24,000 bases of DNA, taken from contig OZ242331.1 in the NCBI GenBank assembly GCA_965208275.1, forward strand, positions 2,093,225 through 2,117,224, in the 5' to 3' direction. The DNA comes from Caldilineaceae bacterium (lineage in GTDB: Bacteria > Chloroflexota > Anaerolineae > Caldilineales > Caldilineaceae). The notes below the pieces were generated by a model. It made no database searches. It was not told the origin of the DNA and saw nothing but the letters and a program-made list of their open reading frames with translations. The first letter of the stretch is position 1, and each line of letters opens with the position of its first letter. The position numbers were made by a program, and so were the translations under genes. Positions 2,339 to 12,064 of this stretch are shown in pieces.

Positions 2339-3898
2339 TCAATTGAGCGGTGGGAAGAATGTGAGATCGGCCCCGAAGTTGGACATGGCCGCCACGGAGT
2401 CGCCGCGCAGCTGCACGCCAATCTCGCGCGTCCGGTGCTTCAATACGATTTTCGACTCAGCCAGGTTGAATTCGATCGCAACCCATCGATTCAGTTGCGG
2501 GCGGCTCAAAACAAGGTAGCCGTTGCTCCACTGGTGCCCGCTCCCGATCCCGTCTACCCTGACCGAATCGGGCGTAACCCAGGTGGGTATACGGACGTAG
2601 AGCGGGCCCGGTCGTTTGACGCGCACGCGCAGGCTCCCGTTTGTATACGGGGACTCAACCGCAACCGCGTCTGTTTCTCGATCGAAGAGCAGGTGCACCC
2701 AGTGCCCGGCTTCGTCCGACACCACCGTTTGACGCATTGCTTCGCACAGTGAAGCCACTGCCCCGCCGACAATGTCCATGTTGAAGCTGATCCTCGTCGC
2801 GTCCAGCGGCTTATGGCCGTAGGGCGCGGGAAAGCCAAATGCGCCAAGATGACGCGCGGCGACATCCCTTTTGCCATCCTCGTCTTGCGGGTTGTCAGGC
2901 TCGCGAATGAAAGAGGTGTCGCGCAGCTGCGAAGGCAGCAGATGGCAGCGCAGAATCCTTTCGGCGTCCTCAAAATATGCTGGATACCCCCACTTCCCCA
3001 GAATCAGCGCCGTCTCGACGATGTCGCCCGTGTTGTTGACCTCGCCACGGTCCGGGTCGACGCGGTCGGCGCTGCTTTCGATGACCCAGCCGATCTCGTC
3101 GCGGATCTCGTTCAGTCCGTTGTCGTAAAATGCCCTCACCCTCTCCATCAAAGGCGCGTCTCGGTTCAGATCGGCCAGCTGGGCCAATGATGAAAGTACG
3201 CAAGTTGTCGAATGTGTATGCGTGCCGAAAGACTCACGGTCGTATCCGCCGCCGGGCAGGAAGAACTCGTCGGTGGCCTTACGCGCCAGCTCCAGTGCCA
3301 GGTCGAGCGCGCCCTTGCAACCCGTGTAGCGATGCAGCTTTACAAGCGGGCCGATCGCGCGGGCCAGGCCGGCAACGAATGTCGTGGAATGGAAGTCGAT
3401 CTCGTCGCCCAGGGCGGCCCTGTCCCACCCTTGTTCCCGGTCCCACAGCCGCTGGATCGCCTCGATGCTTGCTTCGGCCGTTGCCAGGGCCTGCTCGGAG
3501 CCGCGGAAGCGGGCCAGCGCGTAGAGGGCGTGAAAGCCCTCGCGTACATCGTGGGGAGAGAAGTGCTTGAGCCTGCCGCCGATGCGGTCGCGGTTGAGCG
3601 GCAGCGAATGTTCGCCGGAGTAGGACAAAAAGGCGGCGCGCGCGTGCCGGTCGATACAGCCCTCGTCGATATAGACGCCGGCTGCGTCTTCGGCGCTCAG
3701 GAGCGCGTTCAGATGACGCCCCGGAACATGGGACTCGTTATGCGTCGAGCTGAAACTCAGCCTCGCTTCCGGCCACACCTGCGAACCGAAAAAGGGAACG
3801 TCATCGTCATCGGCGTTGAAGACGGAACACATCGTCCGGCAGCCCAGCCGGATCGCTTCTCTGATATCCGCCGTGTTGACGTCGGCAAGCATCGTCAC
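2339..3898 (-). CDS. Six-hairpin (alpha/alpha)6-barrel plus C-terminal beta-sandwich protein, DUF1680/GH127-like architecture, specificity unknown
   Basis: The C-terminal pattern LYVRIPTWV..VRVDG..NGYLVLSR..NRWVAIEFNL resembles the GH127/DUF1680 tail. The helical N-terminal part is rich in repeats. No CC dipeptide or ETCA-like Zn/Cys site is seen, so it is not a canonical GH127. Start set to GTG 3898, with AAGGAG at 3905-3910 and a 6-nt spacer. The track start at 3997 overlaps the upstream gene and has no RBS. Confidence 0.55.
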   Translation of the reverse strand: MTMLADVNTADIREAIRLGCRTMCSVFNADDDDVPFFGSQVWPEARLSFSSTHNESHVPGRHLNALLSAEDAAGVYIDEGCIDRHARAAFLSYSGEHSLPLNRDRIGGRLKHFSPHDVREGFHALYALARFRGSEQALATAEASIEAIQRLWDREQGWDRAALGDEIDFHSTTFVAGLARAIGPLVKLHRYTGCKGALDLALELARKATDEFFLPGGGYDRESFGTHTHSTTCVLSSLAQLADLNRDAPLMERVRAFYDNGLNEIRDEIGWVIESSADRVDPDRGEVNNTGDIVETALILGKWGYPAYFEDAERILRCHLLPSQLRDTSFIREPDNPQDEDGKRDVAARHLGAFGFPAPYGHKPLDATRISFNMDIVGGAVASLCEAMRQTVVSDEAGHWVHLLFDRETDAVAVESPYTNGSLRVRVKRPGPLYVRIPTWVTPDSVRVDGIGSGHQWSNGYLVLSRPQLNRWVAIEFNLAESKIVLKHRTREIGVQLRGDSVAAMSNFGADLTFFPPLN

Positions 3899-3918
3899 CT
3901 GATTCTCCTTGATTTGAC

Positions 3919-5613
3919 TCAGGACCGCGCCTGAAACTGGAAGCCGTAAAGAGTGGACTCGAGCAACGAGAATTGGACCCGCACAGGCCTGTTCCACAGT
4001 TGACGCAAGTCAGGCCCGCCTTCCCAGGCCGCCGTATGCCAGATCTGCGAAGACGGCGCGTGCAGCGGGACCGACTGCTCCAGGCTGAAGCCGGGATAAG
4101 GCTTGAGTTCGGAATCGAGCAGTGCGACGCGCAGCGAGCCATAGGCGCAGTCGGCGTTGACCCGCAGCTCGTCGCCTTCGAATACAAACTGCTTCGTAAC
4201 GACCTGGCCCAATTCATATCTGGGACGGACCGCGGCCCAGCCGTCCTCGCGCAGCACAAGGCCGCCGATGCCGCGTTGCATAGACGCTTCCCGCCGCACT
4301 CTGTCCATCATCGGACTGCCCATCCCGTGCCGGCTCAGCTCTTCGATATGATGGCGGGAAGCCCTGGCTGCTGCCGCGGGCGCATGGTTGGAGACCCCGG
4401 CGGGCCGCGTGTCGCGCTGCTTGTGCGGAAAGGCGGAGTAGGCGATCACCATTCTGCCGTTATGCAGCAGGTAGTCGGATACGGTATGGGCCAGGTAGCC
4501 GTAGTCCTGGCTGCCGGGCGGTCCGTTGTCCGCCCAGGGCCGGTAGCCGTCGGCGCGAAAGAACCGATGGCCGTCGCGGCTGGCGTACAGCGCGGCCTTG
4601 ACATGGAACTGATCGCGCTGGTTGCTGCCGTCGCGGTTGACCAGCCACTGGTGTTCGCCGTGCGCCTCCTCGACGATGCCGATGTATAGGCCCCCCTCCT
4701 TGCGCACGGACATCGTGTGGAGCTCGACATTGGGGCCGACGCCGGGGTCCCAGTCGCCCGAAAGGATGACCTGTTTGGGCGACCAGTTGATGAAGTCGGC
4801 GCTCTCCTGGCGGCCGATCGTGCGGATGTGCAGGTGGCTGGCGAATGCGTGCGAGGCCTGCGAGTAGCCGGCCCACTTGCCATAGGCATCGTCCCAGATG
4901 ACGCGCATCTGGTGGTGATGGCGGAAGGGCGTGTCGTCGCTTATCACCTGCCAGCTAATCCCGTCCGGCGATGCGGCAACGCGTGACATGACGCGATTGC
5001 CGCGGCGGACGGCCTCCATCGATGGGTTGTAGACGGCCAGGAACTTGCGCGACGGGTCGCTCCTGTCCTGATTGAGAACAATGGTGCCGTTGTCGAAGTC
5101 CCGCATGACGATATTGGTACGCTGCTGGTCCGCGAACGGCTGACTGTCGTCGCGCATCGGCTTGTGCCACTGCAGCGCGTCGGCAGATTCGGCGTAGCAA
5201 AGCACGACCTCGGTCCCCTGCGCCGAGTTCGTGTTGCCGCTCACCAGCGTTTTGTACCACATCTTGTAGAGACCGTCGTCCGGGTCGTACAGGGCCGCCG
5301 CCGGGACACAGGTGAAGTGGTAGCGCTCCCAGGGCAGGTCCTCGTACGCGATGAGAGGGGACGCCGCCTTGTCCGGCCTCACGATGATCCGCTCCGCATC
5401 GATCAGTTCATCCAGAATGTAGTTGTCGAGGAAGAGTTGCTTTTGCCTGCCGATATGCTTGAATGGGAGGCGGTAGGGCGGATTGAAGTAGGGGTAGGTG
5501 AGGGGGTCCACGGGCCGATCACCCGCCCAGGTCTCCTCCATCGCCCGATTGGTGTCGGCGAGTTCGGTCTCGCTTCGCGCTTCTGGAGCAAGATGCAGAT
5601 CGCCTTCGGCCAT
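3919..5613 (-). CDS. Cytoplasmic beta-propeller glycosidase-like protein with C-terminal beta-sandwich (GH32/43/68-clan-like), paralog 1
   Basis: 564 aa. Contains QLFLDNYILD, YDPDDGLYKMWY, SPDGISW and a C-terminal LVLREDGWAAV..TKQFVFEGDELRVNAD..LRVALLD jelly-roll pattern like GH32-type C-domains. GGGAGGA lies 4 nt upstream of the ATG. No signal peptide. Clear paralog of 9461..11110. Confidence 0.6.
   Translation of the reverse strand: MAEGDLHLAPEARSETELADTNRAMEETWAGDRPVDPLTYPYFNPPYRLPFKHIGRQKQLFLDNYILDELIDAERIIVRPDKAASPLIAYEDLPWERYHFTCVPAAALYDPDDGLYKMWYKTLVSGNTNSAQGTEVVLCYAESADALQWHKPMRDDSQPFADQQRTNIVMRDFDNGTIVLNQDRSDPSRKFLAVYNPSMEAVRRGNRVMSRVAASPDGISWQVISDDTPFRHHHQMRVIWDDAYGKWAGYSQASHAFASHLHIRTIGRQESADFINWSPKQVILSGDWDPGVGPNVELHTMSVRKEGGLYIGIVEEAHGEHQWLVNRDGSNQRDQFHVKAALYASRDGHRFFRADGYRPWADNGPPGSQDYGYLAHTVSDYLLHNGRMVIAYSAFPHKQRDTRPAGVSNHAPAAAARASRHHIEELSRHGMGSPMMDRVRREASMQRGIGGLVLREDGWAAVRPRYELGQVVTKQFVFEGDELRVNADCAYGSLRVALLDSELKPYPGFSLEQSVPLHAPSSQIWHTAAWEGGPDLRQLWNRPVRVQFSLLESTLYGFQFQARS
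4775..4815. repeat. 41-nt tract identical to 10296..10336 (inside paralogous genes)
   Basis: ttgggcgaccagttgatgaagtcggcgctctcctggcggcc occurs at both sites and encodes GRQESADFINWSPK on the minus strand. Confidence 0.9.
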
Positions 5614-6779: not shown

Positions 6780-7556
6780 TCAGGCAGGAAAATGTTGCAC
6801 CGGACGTCGCTTGCCCCGCCTGTGGGCGTACAGCTCCTGCAGCGGCTGCGGGAATCTGTCAAAGATGTCGGCAGGGACGAAGGCGGCATTGCGCTTGCCG
6901 TACTCCGTGCTCAGCCACCAGGGCGAATAACGGGCGACCACTGAGGTGCGGGTCTCGTCGGTCGTGTTGGCTCCGCGCGAGTGCCAGATGCGGCTGTCGA
7001 TCAGCACCACGTCGCCGGCATCGCCGCAGACCTGCCGCTCGTTCGGAATCGCGCTGTGCTCGTCGATTCCGTCCTTCTCCCCGCGCGGGTTTGTGGGCTC
7101 GCGATGCGTGCCGGGCACGACCCACGTGGCGCCGTTCTCAGGCGTGAACTGATAGAGCATCCAGATGGAAGTGATGCTCATGATCATGTCGGGGAACGGC
7201 TGATTGACGCGCCCGCAGAAGGAACGGTCGGTCAGATCATGCGGCCAGTCGGTGTGAAAGCCGCGCCACGCCGGCGGATCGCTCCTGGGCGGAACGCTCT
7301 TGAACTCGGTCTGCGAAATGCGGACTGTGGCGTGGTTGAACATCGTCCGTACGATGCTCAGCAGTCTTGCGTCGGCAAAATAGGGCGCCAGCGAGAGCAT
7401 GTGGGTGACGGCAGACCAGTCGAGCTCATTGTATGCCTTGAGCCCGGCCACCATTGCGTTATCAATGTCGCTGCGAATGCCGCTTATCTCACCCTCGGGG
7501 ATTACGCCCTTGAGTAGACAGAAGCCGTCGCGGCGCAGCTGCGAAATCTCTTCCAT
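6780..7556 (-). CDS. Phytanoyl-CoA dioxygenase (PhyH) family Fe(II)/2-oxoglutarate-dependent oxygenase
   Basis: 258 aa. HxD facial-triad motif in GFHTDWPHD, distal His in IWHSRGANTT, and Arg in SVVARYSPWW. GGAGAG lies about 4 nt upstream of the ATG. Confidence 0.75.
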   Translation of the reverse strand: MEEISQLRRDGFCLLKGVIPEGEISGIRSDIDNAMVAGLKAYNELDWSAVTHMLSLAPYFADARLLSIVRTMFNHATVRISQTEFKSVPPRSDPPAWRGFHTDWPHDLTDRSFCGRVNQPFPDMIMSITSIWMLYQFTPENGATWVVPGTHREPTNPRGEKDGIDEHSAIPNERQVCGDAGDVVLIDSRIWHSRGANTTDETRTSVVARYSPWWLSTEYGKRNAAFVPADIFDRFPQPLQELYAHRRGKRRPVQHFPA

Positions 7557-7770: not shown

Positions 7771-9414
7771 TCAGCGCCAGTCGTCAACAGAGACTGTTCC
7801 GCCGTAGTTGCACCCCATGATGCGCCAGTAGCCGTTTGTCTCACCGCCGACGACGACGACGTGGATGTCGTCAAGCTCGTAGACCGGAATCATCTCGTCA
7901 GCGTCCACCTTGAGCTTGCTGGCATGCGGTTCGACGCCGTTGAGCGCCTGCGGGTAGACGTAGTTTTCGATCAGCTGGTAGTCCCAGTAGATCCCCGAGG
8001 GCATGGTGGCGTTGTCGTGGACCCACTGGATCAGCTTCTCCTTGGTGTCGAAGCCGCCGCGGTCGATGAACTGCTGCGCCGTGATGGGATCGAGCACCAG
8101 CGTCGGCGGGTTGTGCGGGTTGAGGCCGCGCAGCATATTGCGCACGTGGTCCTGCCAGTGCTTCGCCCGCAGGCCGAGATTGAACGCGGTTGACCGGCAG
8201 CCGCCGAAGACGCTGACCGCGCTCTGGTCCGGTTCGAAGCCGTGCTGCACGTGGAAGGGCACCCACGGACTGCGCTCTTCATTCTCGGCGAAGGTGACGC
8301 TGTTGTAGGCGTAGTTGTTGCCCTGCGAACCTAGATAGGTCACTTCGGGCAGCGAGCCGCCCTGCAGGTTCTGCGAGAGCAGGCCATAGGCGCGTCCGAT
8401 CGTGGCATTGGCGTGATTGTACGGGCCCATTGCGCCGATGCCCCAGTTCATCCCAATCTCCTCGCGGACGGGACCGTTGACGACCGCCATCGACGCGGCC
8501 GAGCTTGTTGTGCTGGCACGGGCCGACGCGCAGGTCGCGGCCAGGGCCAGGATCACGGGCAGGTACTCGGGCCTGGCGCCGGCCATCACCGCGTTGACCG
8601 CCACTTTCTCAACGGTGTACTGCCAGGCTTCGCGCGTCGAGGTTGGCCGCATGTGGCCCACCACCGTGTCCGGGCTGCGGCTGGTCCCTTTCAACATGGC
8701 CTCAACCCGCTCCTCTGTCGGCAGGATGATCGGCAGCATGTCGGTCCAACGATTGTCCACGAAGAGATGGTGCAGATTCTCCTCACTGTCAGACTCGACA
8801 AAGCGGGGCGTAGAGCGGTCGAAGGCGTGCGCGCGCGTCTCCTCCGCCGAGGGCGCGCGCGTGAGCGCGGCGATGACCTCGCCCATGAAGGGACGGCCGG
8901 TGATGTCGTCAGGTCCGTCGACGTAGGCGCGCAGCTGCTCGGGAGAGCGGCCCATGACCGGCTGCGGCACGAAGGCATGGCGCAGATAGGGGATCCCCTG
9001 CTGCAGGGTGGAAGCCTTCACCAGGGGCTCGAAGATCCCCGTCTGGATGGAGGCCGTGGCAACGTTGTACTCGGTTTCCAGAATAATGCATTGGTCGGCG
9101 ACCGCCGGCGCACAGGTACTTCAATGGCCGACGGCCATGACGGCCCCTGCCCCCTTCCGCTGGATCTCCGTATAGAGCGCTTCGTCCCGCTCGGTGTAGA
9201 CGCCCGACTTGCGCCGCACTTCGATCTGTATGTCGGGCCGGTTCTCGCGAAACCAGTTCGCCATCTGTTCAACCAGGATGTCGCCGTCGTCGAAGCGGCA
9301 GTCGACGAGGTAGACAGTCTTCCCGGCCAGGTCGCTGACACGCGGCGCCAGATGCTTCTGGTCAATCTGGGGAGGATAGCCCATCGGGTTGTGAACGCGC
9401 AGATCTGTGGCCAT
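7771..9414 (-). CDS. Putative selenoprotein: UGSC-like U-x-x-C redox module fused to a domain of unknown function (547 residues, Sec at 98 encoded by TGA 9121-9123)
   Basis: Track ORFs 9121..9414 and 7771..9021 share one frame, and the 33 codons between them (9022..9120) contain no stop. The only interruption is one TGA, in the context AVGH-U-STCAPAVADQC. AAGGAG (9421-9426) lies 6 nt upstream of ATG 9414, whereas the GTG at 9021 has no SD. GC3 of the bridging codons is 26/33, which is coding-like. A hairpin follows the TGA. Confidence 0.7.
9087..9112 (-). promoter_or_regulatory. Candidate bacterial SECIS hairpin
   Basis: Numbered from the U of UGA as +1. Lower stem +12-15 / +34-37 (UGCG/UGCA, including one G-U pair). 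Upper stem +17-20 / +25-28 (CGGC/GCCG). Apical loop GGUC at +21-24, which places G-U at +22/+23. Confidence 0.5.
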
Positions 9415-9460
9415 ACCTTGCTCCTTACAAATTGGATTCTCGATTAAGTCTTGTCTCCGC

Positions 9461-11110
9461 CTATTCTACATCATTTTCCGAATTGAGAAACTGAAAAGAA
9501 TAAAGGCTGGCCTCATGCACTTGAAACCGAATCCTCACCGGTCTGTCCCACAGCGTCCGCAGGTCGCCTCCGCCCTGCCAGCGGACCGTGTGCCAGATCT
9601 GGTCCGCCGCCCCGATGAGCGGGTCGCACTGCTGCGCCGAGAAGCCATCGTACGGCTGGAAGCAGGGATCGAGGAGCTCGACGCGGACGTATCCGTAGCG
9701 GCAGTCGGCATTGACGCGCAGCGAGTCCCCTTCGAACACGAACTGTTTGGTTAGGACCCGGCCGGACTCGTAGGCTGGGACGAGACGGGCCCAGCCGTCT
9801 TCGCGCAGGATCAGGCCATTGACCGCCCGCCGGATTCCAGACTCGCCCTGAATCGCCGCGCGCGCCCTCCATTCCTGTTGCCGGCGCGCGAACTCCTCGC
9901 GAGGATAGAGCGGTGTCGGCGGCCCGGGGTGCAGCCAGCTCTGCTTCTGCGGATTGGCGCTGTAGGGGATCACCATGCGACCGTCGTGTACGAGCGTCCC
10001 CGCGGGTGTGAAGCAGGCGAACCCGTAGTCCTGGTCGCCCGGATCACCGGTGTCGACCCAGGGACCGGGGCCGCCCACGCGCTGCCAGCGCCTTCCGTCG
10101 CGGCTGGTGTAGAGGCCCAGGCGGCTGAAAGCCTGGTCGCGCCAGTTGTGGCCGTCTCGCTCCTGCCAGAAAGGCTCGGCCATGAACTCGCTTGTTATGC
10201 CGATGTAGAGCCCGCCGATTTTGCGTGCCGACATGTCGTGCATCTCGAGGTCGGGCGGCAGGTTGGCGTCCCAGTCGGCCGAAAGCGCGACCTCCTTGGG
10301 CGACCAGTTGATGAAGTCGGCGCTCTCCTGGCGGCCAATCTGACGCTTGCGGTAAAGAAAGTTCTGGTGATGGGAATACTGGCTGAAGCCGACCCAGCGC
10401 CGGATGCTCCCGTCCCAGAATATCTTCTGTTCGTGGTGATGAGGAAATGCACTCTCCTCGCTGATCGTATGCCAGCGGATTCCGTCCGGCGAGGCGTCGA
10501 CGCGCGAGAGGCGGGGGCTGTTGGGCGGGCGAACGCGCGCTGCTTTCGGCGGCCAGTTTACCAGCAGGTACTTGCGGTCGGGGTCGCTGCGGTCATAGTT
10601 GAGCGCCAAGCCGGACTGGGACACGTCCGGATGGACGATGTTGGTTGCCTTGTGCCCTTCAAAGGGAAGGCAGTCGTCGCGCAGCGGCTTTTCCCACTGG
10701 AGCGCGTCCCTGGATTCAGCGTAACAGAGTACTTGACCCTCGTTGAAAGCGTGTCCGGTCAAACCCTGCCAGTACCACATTTTGAAGAGGCCGTCGTCGG
10801 GGTCGTGGACGACGCCGGCGGTGCCGGGATTGAACTGCACCTGCTCCCACGGCAGGTCGGACCAGGCGAGCAGAGGTTCGGCTGTTTTGGCGGGAACGCA
10901 AACCTCGCGGCGTACGCCTTCAAGGTGGTCGAGAATGAAGTTGTCGAGGAAGAGCTGGCGCTCCGTGCCGATGTGGAGGAAGGGCACACGGTAGTCGGGC
11001 GGAATGTAGGGGTAGTCCCTTTCGACCGGCCGGGCGCCGGACCTGATTGCATCGGTCTTCTGCTGGATGTCGAGTGGCTCGGTTGGACTCTGGCGTTCAG
11101 GCGTGTTCAC
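9461..11110 (-). CDS. Cytoplasmic beta-propeller glycosidase-like protein with C-terminal beta-sandwich, paralog 2
   Basis: 549 aa with a GTG start and GGAGG 11 nt upstream. Collinear with 3919..5613 at roughly half identical residues by eye. Shared blocks are QLFLDNFILD, DPDDGLFKMWY, IGRQESADFINWSPK, GLYIGI, DGRMVI.YSA, LREDGWA and TKQFVFEGD.LRVNADC.YG. Confidence 0.6.
   Translation of the reverse strand: MNTPERQSPTEPLDIQQKTDAIRSGARPVERDYPYIPPDYRVPFLHIGTERQLFLDNFILDHLEGVRREVCVPAKTAEPLLAWSDLPWEQVQFNPGTAGVVHDPDDGLFKMWYWQGLTGHAFNEGQVLCYAESRDALQWEKPLRDDCLPFEGHKATNIVHPDVSQSGLALNYDRSDPDRKYLLVNWPPKAARVRPPNSPRLSRVDASPDGIRWHTISEESAFPHHHEQKIFWDGSIRRWVGFSQYSHHQNFLYRKRQIGRQESADFINWSPKEVALSADWDANLPPDLEMHDMSARKIGGLYIGITSEFMAEPFWQERDGHNWRDQAFSRLGLYTSRDGRRWQRVGGPGPWVDTGDPGDQDYGFACFTPAGTLVHDGRMVIPYSANPQKQSWLHPGPPTPLYPREEFARRQQEWRARAAIQGESGIRRAVNGLILREDGWARLVPAYESGRVLTKQFVFEGDSLRVNADCRYGYVRVELLDPCFQPYDGFSAQQCDPLIGAADQIWHTVRWQGGGDLRTLWDRPVRIRFQVHEASLYSFQFLNSENDVE
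10296..10336. repeat. 41-nt tract identical to 4775..4815
   Basis: Same 41-mer as in paralog 1, with flanks about 85% identical over roughly 80 nt. Confidence 0.9.
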
Positions 11111-11161
11111 TTTGCGCGGGACCTCCGGTTGCGGGAAATGGTCTGGTGGATGGCCAAAGCG

Positions 11162-12064
11162 TCAGATGCCCCACATCTCCCGCATTTCTGCCATCGTCTT
11201 TCGGTTCTCGGCTTTGGGGATATTGCCCGGGTGCGGCCCCATGTGACGCTCGTCGACCGGCTCGGAGGCCAACTGGTAGCGCGTGTCCGTGCTGATGCGG
11301 TAGCGGTCGGAGACGTTGTCCAGCGAACCGTGCAGAAAGAACATGCCAAATATCATCACGTCGCCGGCGCGGAAAGGCGTGGACGCCCACTGCACGCCGA
11401 GGCTTTCGATCAGGTCATGCGGGTCGCGGCTGAGGTGGCCGTCGAGGAGGTCGTTGTGCGCGTCGGCCGTCCCATAAGTGGAGCGCAGAATGTCGAGCCG
11501 GTTGGAGCCTGGGCAAAAGGCGAGAGGGCCCATAGTCAGCGAAATGTCGTCCAGCGGCGTCCAGGCCGTGTACAACTGCTTTGTGCCCGCGCCCATGAAC
11601 ACAACGTCATAGTGGGCGCCTGTGCTCACTCCCGTGCTGACCGCGCGCGGCCATTTGTGGTCCAGCGTCAGGACCGGCCCGCCCAGGAACCGTTCAAAGA
11701 AGGCCATGATGCGGCGCGAATTGACGAGGCGCAGGTAGTTGGGCATCTTGAGGACATCGTCGTGTGGAAGGACGGCGTTGCCGCCTTCCTGCCCAACTGT
11801 GCCTTTCTCCATAGGGACATCCTTTGCGAGACGCCCTTGCTCCGACAGCTGCTTCAGAATGTCAGTCCTGGCGGAAAGCACGGCTTCACGGTCGTAGAAC
11901 CCGCGAATGAGTAGGTAACCGTCTTCTTCAATCCTGGCGTGCAGTGCTGCCGCGTCGTGCAAAATGCCGTTGGCATCGCGCGGCGTGAAGATCGTCTGAC
12001 CGAAGACAAGCTCATGTCCGGCCATCGAGACCTTGGTTCCATCTGCTACTGCCGGAGCTCTCAT
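11162..12064 (-). CDS. Phytanoyl-CoA dioxygenase (PhyH) family Fe(II)/2-oxoglutarate-dependent oxygenase
   Basis: 300 aa. HxD in TGAHYDVVF, distal His in FFLHGSLDN, and Arg in RYRISTDTRY. GAGGAGG lies 10 nt upstream of ATG 12064. An alternative ATG at 12025 is possible. Confidence 0.75.
   Translation of the reverse strand: MRAPAVADGTKVSMAGHELVFGQTIFTPRDANGILHDAAALHARIEEDGYLLIRGFYDREAVLSARTDILKQLSEQGRLAKDVPMEKGTVGQEGGNAVLPHDDVLKMPNYLRLVNSRRIMAFFERFLGGPVLTLDHKWPRAVSTGVSTGAHYDVVFMGAGTKQLYTAWTPLDDISLTMGPLAFCPGSNRLDILRSTYGTADAHNDLLDGHLSRDPHDLIESLGVQWASTPFRAGDVMIFGMFFLHGSLDNVSDRYRISTDTRYQLASEPVDERHMGPHPGNIPKAENRKTMAEMREMWGI

Follow-up and report, generated by a model that had tools for sequence, protein, structure and literature searches.

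The consensus for bacterial selenocysteine insertion sequence (bSECIS) elements (Zhang and Gladyshev 2005, summarised in PMC13188914) describes a hairpin with a loop of 3–9 nucleotides (nt) on an upper stem of 4–16 base pairs (bp), a G at loop position 1 or 2 that usually precedes a G or U, a spacing of 16–37 nt between UGA and loop, and a minimum free energy of −7.5 kcal/mol or lower. In the element of Escherichia coli fdhF, a G-U dinucleotide of the loop is the contact of SelB (PMC8659212). The fdhF sequence we used for comparison was confirmed at 100% identity in fdhF of 5419 E. coli genomes; its fold places a GGUC loop at +22 to +25 on an apical stem of 3 bp, below which come a 1-nt bulge and a lower stem. 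As to the proteins, the UGSC-containing protein has been known as a UxxC selenoprotein family since ocean-metagenome surveys (Zhang and Gladyshev 2008, PMC2398784; PMC13188914), and its domain has been reported in ocean metagenomes fused to an unknown conserved domain, 'Unknown_1' (PMC2398784), which may be the partner described here. We analysed a 24,000-nt stretch of DNA from a Caldilineaceae bacterium (contig OZ242331.1, positions 2,093,225 to 2,117,224; hereafter the window) that contains a gene of this family with an in-frame UGA. The hairpin directly 3' of this UGA is very probably, at roughly 90% by our own estimate from sequence comparison, a bacterial SECIS located within the coding sequence of a selenoprotein gene of the UGSC family. 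Support for this reading comes from the relatives of the gene, not from folding energy.

The gene and the parts of the hairpin are listed below, with hairpin positions counted from the U of the UGA (window position 9123, minus strand) as +1, which places +37 at window position 9087.

7771–9414, minus strand: predicted selenoprotein gene of 547 codons, with ATG at 9414, an in-frame UGA at codon 98 and the stop TGA at 7773–7771
9121–9123, minus strand: putative recoded UGA, selenocysteine (Sec) codon 98 in the motif VGH-U-STC, with Cys at the aligned position in homologues
9109–9113, minus strand: 5' arm of the lower stem, GUGCG (+11 to +15), pairing with +34 to +38; the weakest part of the hairpin
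9104–9107, minus strand: 5' arm of the upper (apical) stem, CGGC (+17 to +20), from the RNAalifold consensus of 72 sequences and covariation
9100–9103, minus strand: apical tetraloop GGUC (+21 to +24), conserved in 72 distinct Sec sequences and identical to the fdhF loop
9096–9099, minus strand: 3' arm of the upper stem, GCCG (+25 to +28), on the same evidence as its 5' arm
9091–9095, minus strand: 3' side of the internal loop, ACCAA (+29 to +33), opposite C16 (window 9108), by direct reading
9086–9090, minus strand: 3' arm of the lower stem, UGCAU (+34 to +38), its sequence fixed by Cys-Ile codons in the window lineage

A preliminary description of this DNA had proposed a SECIS-like hairpin at 9087–9123, in which a lower stem (U12-A37, G13-C36, C14-G35, G15-U34) and an upper stem (C17-G28, G18-C27, G19-C26, C20-G25) are separated by an internal loop and capped by G21-G22-U23-C24. 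All of the bases and pairs so listed are present there on the minus strand. The internal loop is an asymmetric 1x5 loop with C16 facing A29–A33, and the 13-mer CCGGCGGTCGCCG has a single occurrence in the window.

Translation from ATG 9414 reaches the TGA at 9123–9121, and the same frame runs on to the TGA at 7773–7771, with reading frame and protein conservation unbroken across the UGA. Full-length homologues of about 550 amino acids (aa) and ~60% identity align end to end with the window protein and place the Cys of VGHCSTCAP opposite the UGA. Across the loci that share the motif GH[U/C]STC, the U/C position is encoded by TGA in 41 (window included) and by TGC or TGT in 18, and more distant paralogues and subfamilies add another 40 distinct sequences with UGA. 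TGA is the ordinary stop of 12 of the 19 long open reading frames (ORFs) in the window, that of the selenoprotein gene itself among them, and therefore UGA is not reassigned genome-wide. The alignments support reading the UGA at codon 98 as a Sec codon in a UxxC motif.

Mechanical ORF calling cuts the gene in two, giving a 97-aa ORF (9121–9414) and a 416-aa ORF from GTG 9021 (7771–9021), both on the minus strand. Were the UGA a true stop, these would be two proteins, a 97-aa N-terminal product and a 416-aa product initiated at GTG 9021. The public calls for the closest relatives agree with such a division, as the nearest protein relatives (81–97% identity; P0001–P0013 and others) are 416–441-aa fragments starting just past the UGA. 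On the other hand, the stretch of 33 codons from the UGA to GTG 9021 keeps the frame and shows protein-level conservation with the full-length Cys homologues, and the match to PF24696 (UGSC family, Pfam; 58.8 bits against a gathering cutoff of 25) covers residues 7–165 and has the UGA inside it. Moreover, gene callers disagree on the start (416, 425, 430, 436 or 441 aa), as is typical of truncated selenoprotein calls. We regard two separate products as extremely improbable. Since the nearest public entries are of the same fragment type as the 416-aa ORF, Sec forms of the long UGSC-domain family are systematically mis-annotated as fragments in public gene calls. The 97-aa stub and the 416-aa fragment are one gene, and the annotation should become that of a 547-residue Sec-containing protein.

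Constraint on the hairpin was seen at synonymous sites. The comparison set comprised 104 related loci, the closest of which (L001, a contig of a Caldilineaceae metagenome-assembled genome) is 98% identical, and for codon analysis 37 distinct Sec sequences were set against Cys orthologues. Codons +5 to +8 are CCG in 37 of 37 Sec orthologues, GCG in 34, GUC in 36 and GCC in 35. Wherever a codon departs from these, the encoded residue departs as well, so that no variation is left at the third base. At these codons the third-position entropy is 0 bits in Sec genes, compared to 0.96–1.57 bits in Cys orthologues encoding the same peptide, while the four-fold-degenerate codons that flank the element in Sec genes mostly lie at 1.2–1.9 bits. 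Among 91 conserved four-fold-degenerate columns gene-wide (mean 1.41 bits), zero entropy occurs only at CCG GCG GUC GCC, and the next-lowest column is the adjacent Ala codon. Predicted pairing follows the same division. The apical-stem probability is mostly 0.9–1.0 in 32 distinct orthologues and ~0 in all 18 Cys orthologues; in the wider set its median is 0.99, with values of at least 0.5 in 59 of 72 Sec sequences and in 0 of 23 Cys sequences. The hairpins of most orthologues have energies of −14 to −23 kcal/mol, and 17 nt (+4 to +20) separate the UGA from the loop in all 72 Sec sequences. The sequence comparison demonstrates that the 4-bp stem 17-28 to 20-25 and its GGUC loop are maintained by RNA-level selection in UGA-containing genes only.

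These data bear directly on the possibility that the hairpin arises by chance wherever a G+C-rich genome encodes the conserved peptide C-A-P-A-V-A, with no function as RNA and with the UGA read through in some other way. The Cys orthologues encode the same peptide and are similarly G+C-rich, yet they vary freely at synonymous sites and none of them forms the hairpin. The four codons are, in addition, the sole invariant four-fold-degenerate codons of the entire gene. A chance origin is further at odds with the covariation of the stem across subfamilies that differ in the encoded peptide (PAVA, PTVV and PEVS), described next.

Covariation was assessed on an alignment (A5) of 72 distinct UGA-containing sequences from many phyla. 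Relatives of 45–53% identity also carry TGA, in motifs that include GL-U-STC-SPTVVG, GT-U-PGC-APEVSG and GL-U-SGC-APAVAG. The loop is nearly fixed, with G21 and C24 invariant and G22 and U23 at least 90% conserved, and the upper stem of the preliminary description is likewise conserved in the Sec relatives while its base pairs are exchanged. Pair 17-28 is CG in all 72 sequences; pair 18-27 is GC in 63, CG in 8 and AU in 1; pair 19-26 is GC in 36, AU in 28 and GU in 2; and pair 20-25 is CG in 64, AU in 6 and UG in 1. Single changes are wobble-compatible (C20U in L003, C26U in L061). The covariation score is 0.294, compared to 0.112 ± 0.014 in shuffles, and 56 cells are changed on both sides, compared to 21.7 ± 4.2, neither value being reached by any of 500 shuffles; the sequences are kin, however, so these counts are not probabilities, a first point that tells against the SECIS reading. 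The flanking codons, the Cys orthologues and the slid registers serve as internal controls, and to that extent the argument is independent of kinship. Registers slid along the alignment give lower covariation than 17-28 to 20-25, and RNAalifold, given the alignment alone, returns exactly these four pairs and a 4-nt loop. In divergent subfamilies the hairpin sits at the identical place on re-coded stems (GCCCGAC-GGUC-GUCGGGC, CCCCAC-GGUC-GUGGGG, GCCGGA-GGUC-UCCGGC and CCCAAC-GGUC-GUUGGG), and natural stem variants include GACGGUCGUC, CACGGUCGUG and GGAGGUCUCC. The synonymous-site and covariation evidence has largely refuted a chance origin of the hairpin, to which we assign only a marginal probability.

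The locus is a clear case of an RNA element within coding sequence, in which compensatory stem changes are made via amino-acid replacements (PAVA, PTVV, PEVS) around an invariant loop. As a by-product, the relatives supply a set of naturally occurring stems that differ by compensatory changes while GGUC stays the same. L101 (TGA at 1768; 43% identity; motif GH-U-SSC-TPACSG), of all Sec relatives in the metagenome scan the most distant, keeps a stem of C16-G29, C17-G28, G18-C27 and G19-C26 under a 6-nt loop, CGUGCU, with G-U still near the loop start.

Further points against the SECIS reading come from the window itself. Folds of 44 and 74 nt are no better than those of dinucleotide shuffles (z of +0.46 and +1.35, respectively), and over +1 to +90 long-range pairing displaces the hairpin, reducing the apical-stem probability to ~0. 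The proposed pairs have an energy of −6.9 kcal/mol and the apical hairpin alone −6.5 kcal/mol, both of which miss the bSECIS threshold of −7.5 kcal/mol; this is reached only when G11-U38 is added to the lower stem (−8.2 kcal/mol). RNAfold favours another register (18-31, 19-30, 20-28, 21-27, 22-26) at −8.8 kcal/mol, better by 0.6 kcal/mol. Rfam at gathering thresholds returned zero matches over the whole window, and a scan of 9040–9140 at permissive E-values gave only chance-level matches to unrelated families (E 1.3–8.9), with no SECIS family among them. The bulged U17 of fdhF, on which E. coli SelB depends, is missing as such, the window having C16 in its 1x5 internal loop. Lastly, no selA, selB, selC or selD was seen in the 24-kb window and no tRNA gene lies there, and ten long neighbouring ORFs compared with Pfam gave no match to the Sec machinery.

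With regard to the folding results, single-sequence z-scores are uninformative in so G+C-rich a context. The hairpin of the preliminary description is not the one that RNAfold prefers on the window sequence, while RNAalifold on the relatives does return its apical part. Over +1 to +48, the ensemble probability of the apical stem in the window is 0.38; it rises to 0.88 when +1 to +13 are omitted, on the assumption that this segment is covered by the ribosome while the UGA occupies the A site. The register preferred by RNAfold was rejected, having zero both-side changes, with 500 of 500 shuffles doing as well. An alternative register put forward in the preliminary description (21-31, 22-30, 23-29, 24-28) was also discarded: its energy is −4.9 kcal/mol, it has no covariation and 406 of 500 shuffles equal it.

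A chance origin of the hairpin draws what support it has from these single-sequence folds, which do not surpass shuffles, and from the frequency of loosely similar structures, given that the window has 588 UGA triplets and that 8% of them precede a hairpin obeying relaxed bSECIS rules. Just 1 of the 588, the one considered here, is followed at the matching spacing by a stem of 4 bp or more that carries a GGUC tetraloop. Many TGA-joined ORF pairs were likewise seen when the window was surveyed for other selenoprotein genes, with the GGUC hairpin only at 9123.

The lower stem differs between the window lineage and most other orthologues. The bases of the lower stem proposed in the preliminary description are all present, and the six nearest distinct sequences form its pairs in 20 of 24 cells; it is, however, without compensatory change and shifts its register in L081 and L002. 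In most orthologues +29 to +33 reads GUGCA or GCGCA, giving a long, continuous lower stem (G11 to C16 with G28 to C33) with one bulged C. Cells of this common stem (9-35 to 16-28) are paired at 81.8% in Sec genes compared to 57.6% in Cys genes, and its covariation is modest (17 of 500 shuffles do as well), with pair 15-29 occurring as GC, GU, AU, CG and UA. The alignments support a lower stem of the common class, if less strongly than they do the apical stem; the window is not of this class. Its lineage carries Asp-Gln (GAC CAA) in place of the Val/Ala-His of other orthologues, a replacement that takes away the 3' side with which the lower stem usually pairs. A weaker substitute lower stem formed with the downstream Cys-Ile codons (UGCAU) is plausible but unproven.

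A second hairpin lies immediately 5' of the UGA (9124–9138, minus strand; −15 to −1), with a perfect 6-bp stem (AUGGCC-GUC-GGCCAU) and an energy of −7.6 kcal/mol. Among 12 sequences checked, it is found only in the window, L001, L083 and L097, and neither in L081 (88% identical) nor in distant orthologues. It was rejected as a part of the element, being confined to the closest relatives, and is probably incidental.

Compared with the known systems, the hairpin agrees with the published bSECIS consensus in loop, stem and spacing, with a 4-nt loop, a 4-bp upper stem, G21, G22 and U23 in the loop and a spacing of 17 nt, and is borderline in energy. It lies within the ORF, directly 3' of a UGA that aligns with Cys, and it is kept in Sec genes and dispensable in Cys orthologues. 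The likeness to fdhF is close. Both are in-ORF hairpins directly 3' of a Sec UGA, with an identical GGUC tetraloop on a G/C apical stem of 3–4 bp, and most orthologues come closer still: their apical stem of 3 bp is followed by one pyrimidine bulged out on the 5' side and then by a longer lower stem. The SECIS-like distance and loop content noted in the preliminary description thus agree with both the consensus and the fdhF loop. The differences are that the loop here is 1 nt nearer the UGA (+21 to +24 compared to +22 to +25), that the host gene is unrelated, and that the bulged position is C in most orthologues where fdhF has U17, with no bulge at all in the divergent subfamilies, whose stems are uninterrupted. 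By this analogy, the element would act as an fdhF-type SECIS that lacks U17, the defining feature of that type.

The hairpin could be functional without being a SelB-binding SECIS, either as a pausing or mRNA-stability element of UGA alleles or as a promoter of readthrough that does not insert Sec. In favour of this are the absence of the bulged U that E. coli SelB requires and the fact that SelB binding is here argued from analogy. Set against it are the spacing, which is that expected for a SECIS, the G-U dinucleotide of the loop and indeed the exact GGUC loop of fdhF, and the strict coupling of the hairpin to a UGA at a Cys-equivalent site, within a UxxC redox motif and in a family already counted among the selenoproteins. 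We consider a function of this other kind very improbable, though less so than a chance hairpin, and retain the SECIS reading.

As a SECIS, the element would by analogy depend on SelB. SelB-GTP carrying Sec-tRNA(Sec) would bind the apical loop via its G-U, with G22 and U23 corresponding to G23 and U24 of fdhF. On entry of the UGA into the A site, the ribosome would unwind the lower stem (+11 to +15) in the mRNA channel and leave the apical hairpin at the channel entrance, from where the tethered SelB, competing with release factor 2, would bring Sec-tRNA(Sec) to the UGA. The hairpin would afterwards be melted and translated as Pro-Ala-Val-Ala. Such an element is ordinary in kind, a standard bacterial SECIS in a known selenoprotein family, and it adds nothing new to the understanding of selenocysteine insertion.

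The protein itself is a long member of its family. It resembles the UGSC family in its above-threshold match to PF24696, in having a UxxC motif with Sec in first position and in the coexistence of Sec and Cys forms, and differs in its U-S-T-C motif (U-G-S-C in the family) and its length of ~550 aa (~150 aa in the family). The 547-codon gene encodes an N-terminal UGSC-family domain followed by a C-terminal domain of ~380–400 aa. Against NF041046, the NCBIfam equivalog model for UGSC_fam, the window protein scores 43.5 bits, below the curated cutoff of 125, and the Cys homologues P0042 and P0112 (57 and 53 bits, respectively) also remain under it; these scores mark the window protein as a long fused relative and not as the 147-aa equivalog. 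Several of the ~550-aa Cys homologues are labelled 'UGSC family (seleno)protein' by NCBI, and a protein search with the window protein retrieved more than 7,900 relatives. We offer only tentatively, and with more doubt than belief, the suggestion that the long (~550 aa) UGSC-domain fusion is a very widespread, uncharacterised selenoenzyme family with an unusually rigid SECIS, in which GGUC is fixed at +21 to +24 across phyla and across re-coded stems. If this is true, the family would exemplify a near-universal mode of loop recognition by SelB under joint coding and RNA constraint, and its natural series of stem variants would be of use in engineering portable SECIS elements.

To gain a structural view we used a confident AlphaFold model of P0017, a Cys homologue of full length and 63% identity, which has a predicted local distance difference test score (pLDDT) of 85.4 and a predicted template modelling score (pTM) of 0.85. 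The model predicts alternating strands and helices (alpha/beta) around the U/C position, which would lie between strand 92–98 and helix 103–117. A Foldseek search of this model against the PDB gave template modelling (TM) scores of at most 0.2, with no meaningful match, and a profile search of PDB sequences found no relative. The C-terminal domain (~380 aa, residues ~166–547; 7771–8919, minus strand) falls into no Pfam family, and neither its sequence nor its fold has a counterpart in the PDB. The domain has an invariant Cys406 in a G-C-R motif, along with many invariant Gly, Asn and Trp residues.

Several loci of the comparison set hold more than one member of the family. Two paralogues, each with a UGA and a GGUC hairpin, occur together in L037 (TGA at 3289 and 4937) and in L047 (2334 and 4008), and L074 likewise has two Sec paralogues (TGA at 3277 on the plus strand and at 153 on the reverse strand). 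A Cys paralogue (GHCSNCAPAV) on the opposite strand adjoins the Sec paralogue in L035 and L040. The gene with its bacterial in-ORF SECIS was also found on contigs binned as Candidatus Nitrosocosmicus, an archaeon (L014, DASRWT010000085.1), and as Klebsiella pneumoniae (L062, CAMDRJ010000019.1); both are most likely mis-binned metagenomic contigs.

The neighbouring genes in the window encode two PhyH-type dioxygenases, a Kelch-repeat protein, an HpcH-type aldolase, a GFO/IDH/MocA oxidoreductase and a BNR-repeat protein. Those nearest to the selenoprotein gene are as follows.

6780–7556 and 11162–12064, minus strand: phytanoyl-CoA dioxygenase (PhyH) family genes, flanking the selenoprotein gene on the same strand
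9461–11110: 549-aa ORF that matches no Pfam family, ending 47 nt upstream of the selenoprotein gene

The selenoprotein gene, its PhyH neighbours and the 549-aa ORF may form an operon. Elsewhere in the window, two long ORFs with no Pfam match (2339–3997, 552 aa, and 3919–5613, 564 aa; minus strand) overlap by 79 nt, and long shadow ORFs are common on the opposite strand of this G+C-rich DNA, for example at 8413–9447 and 9878–11914.

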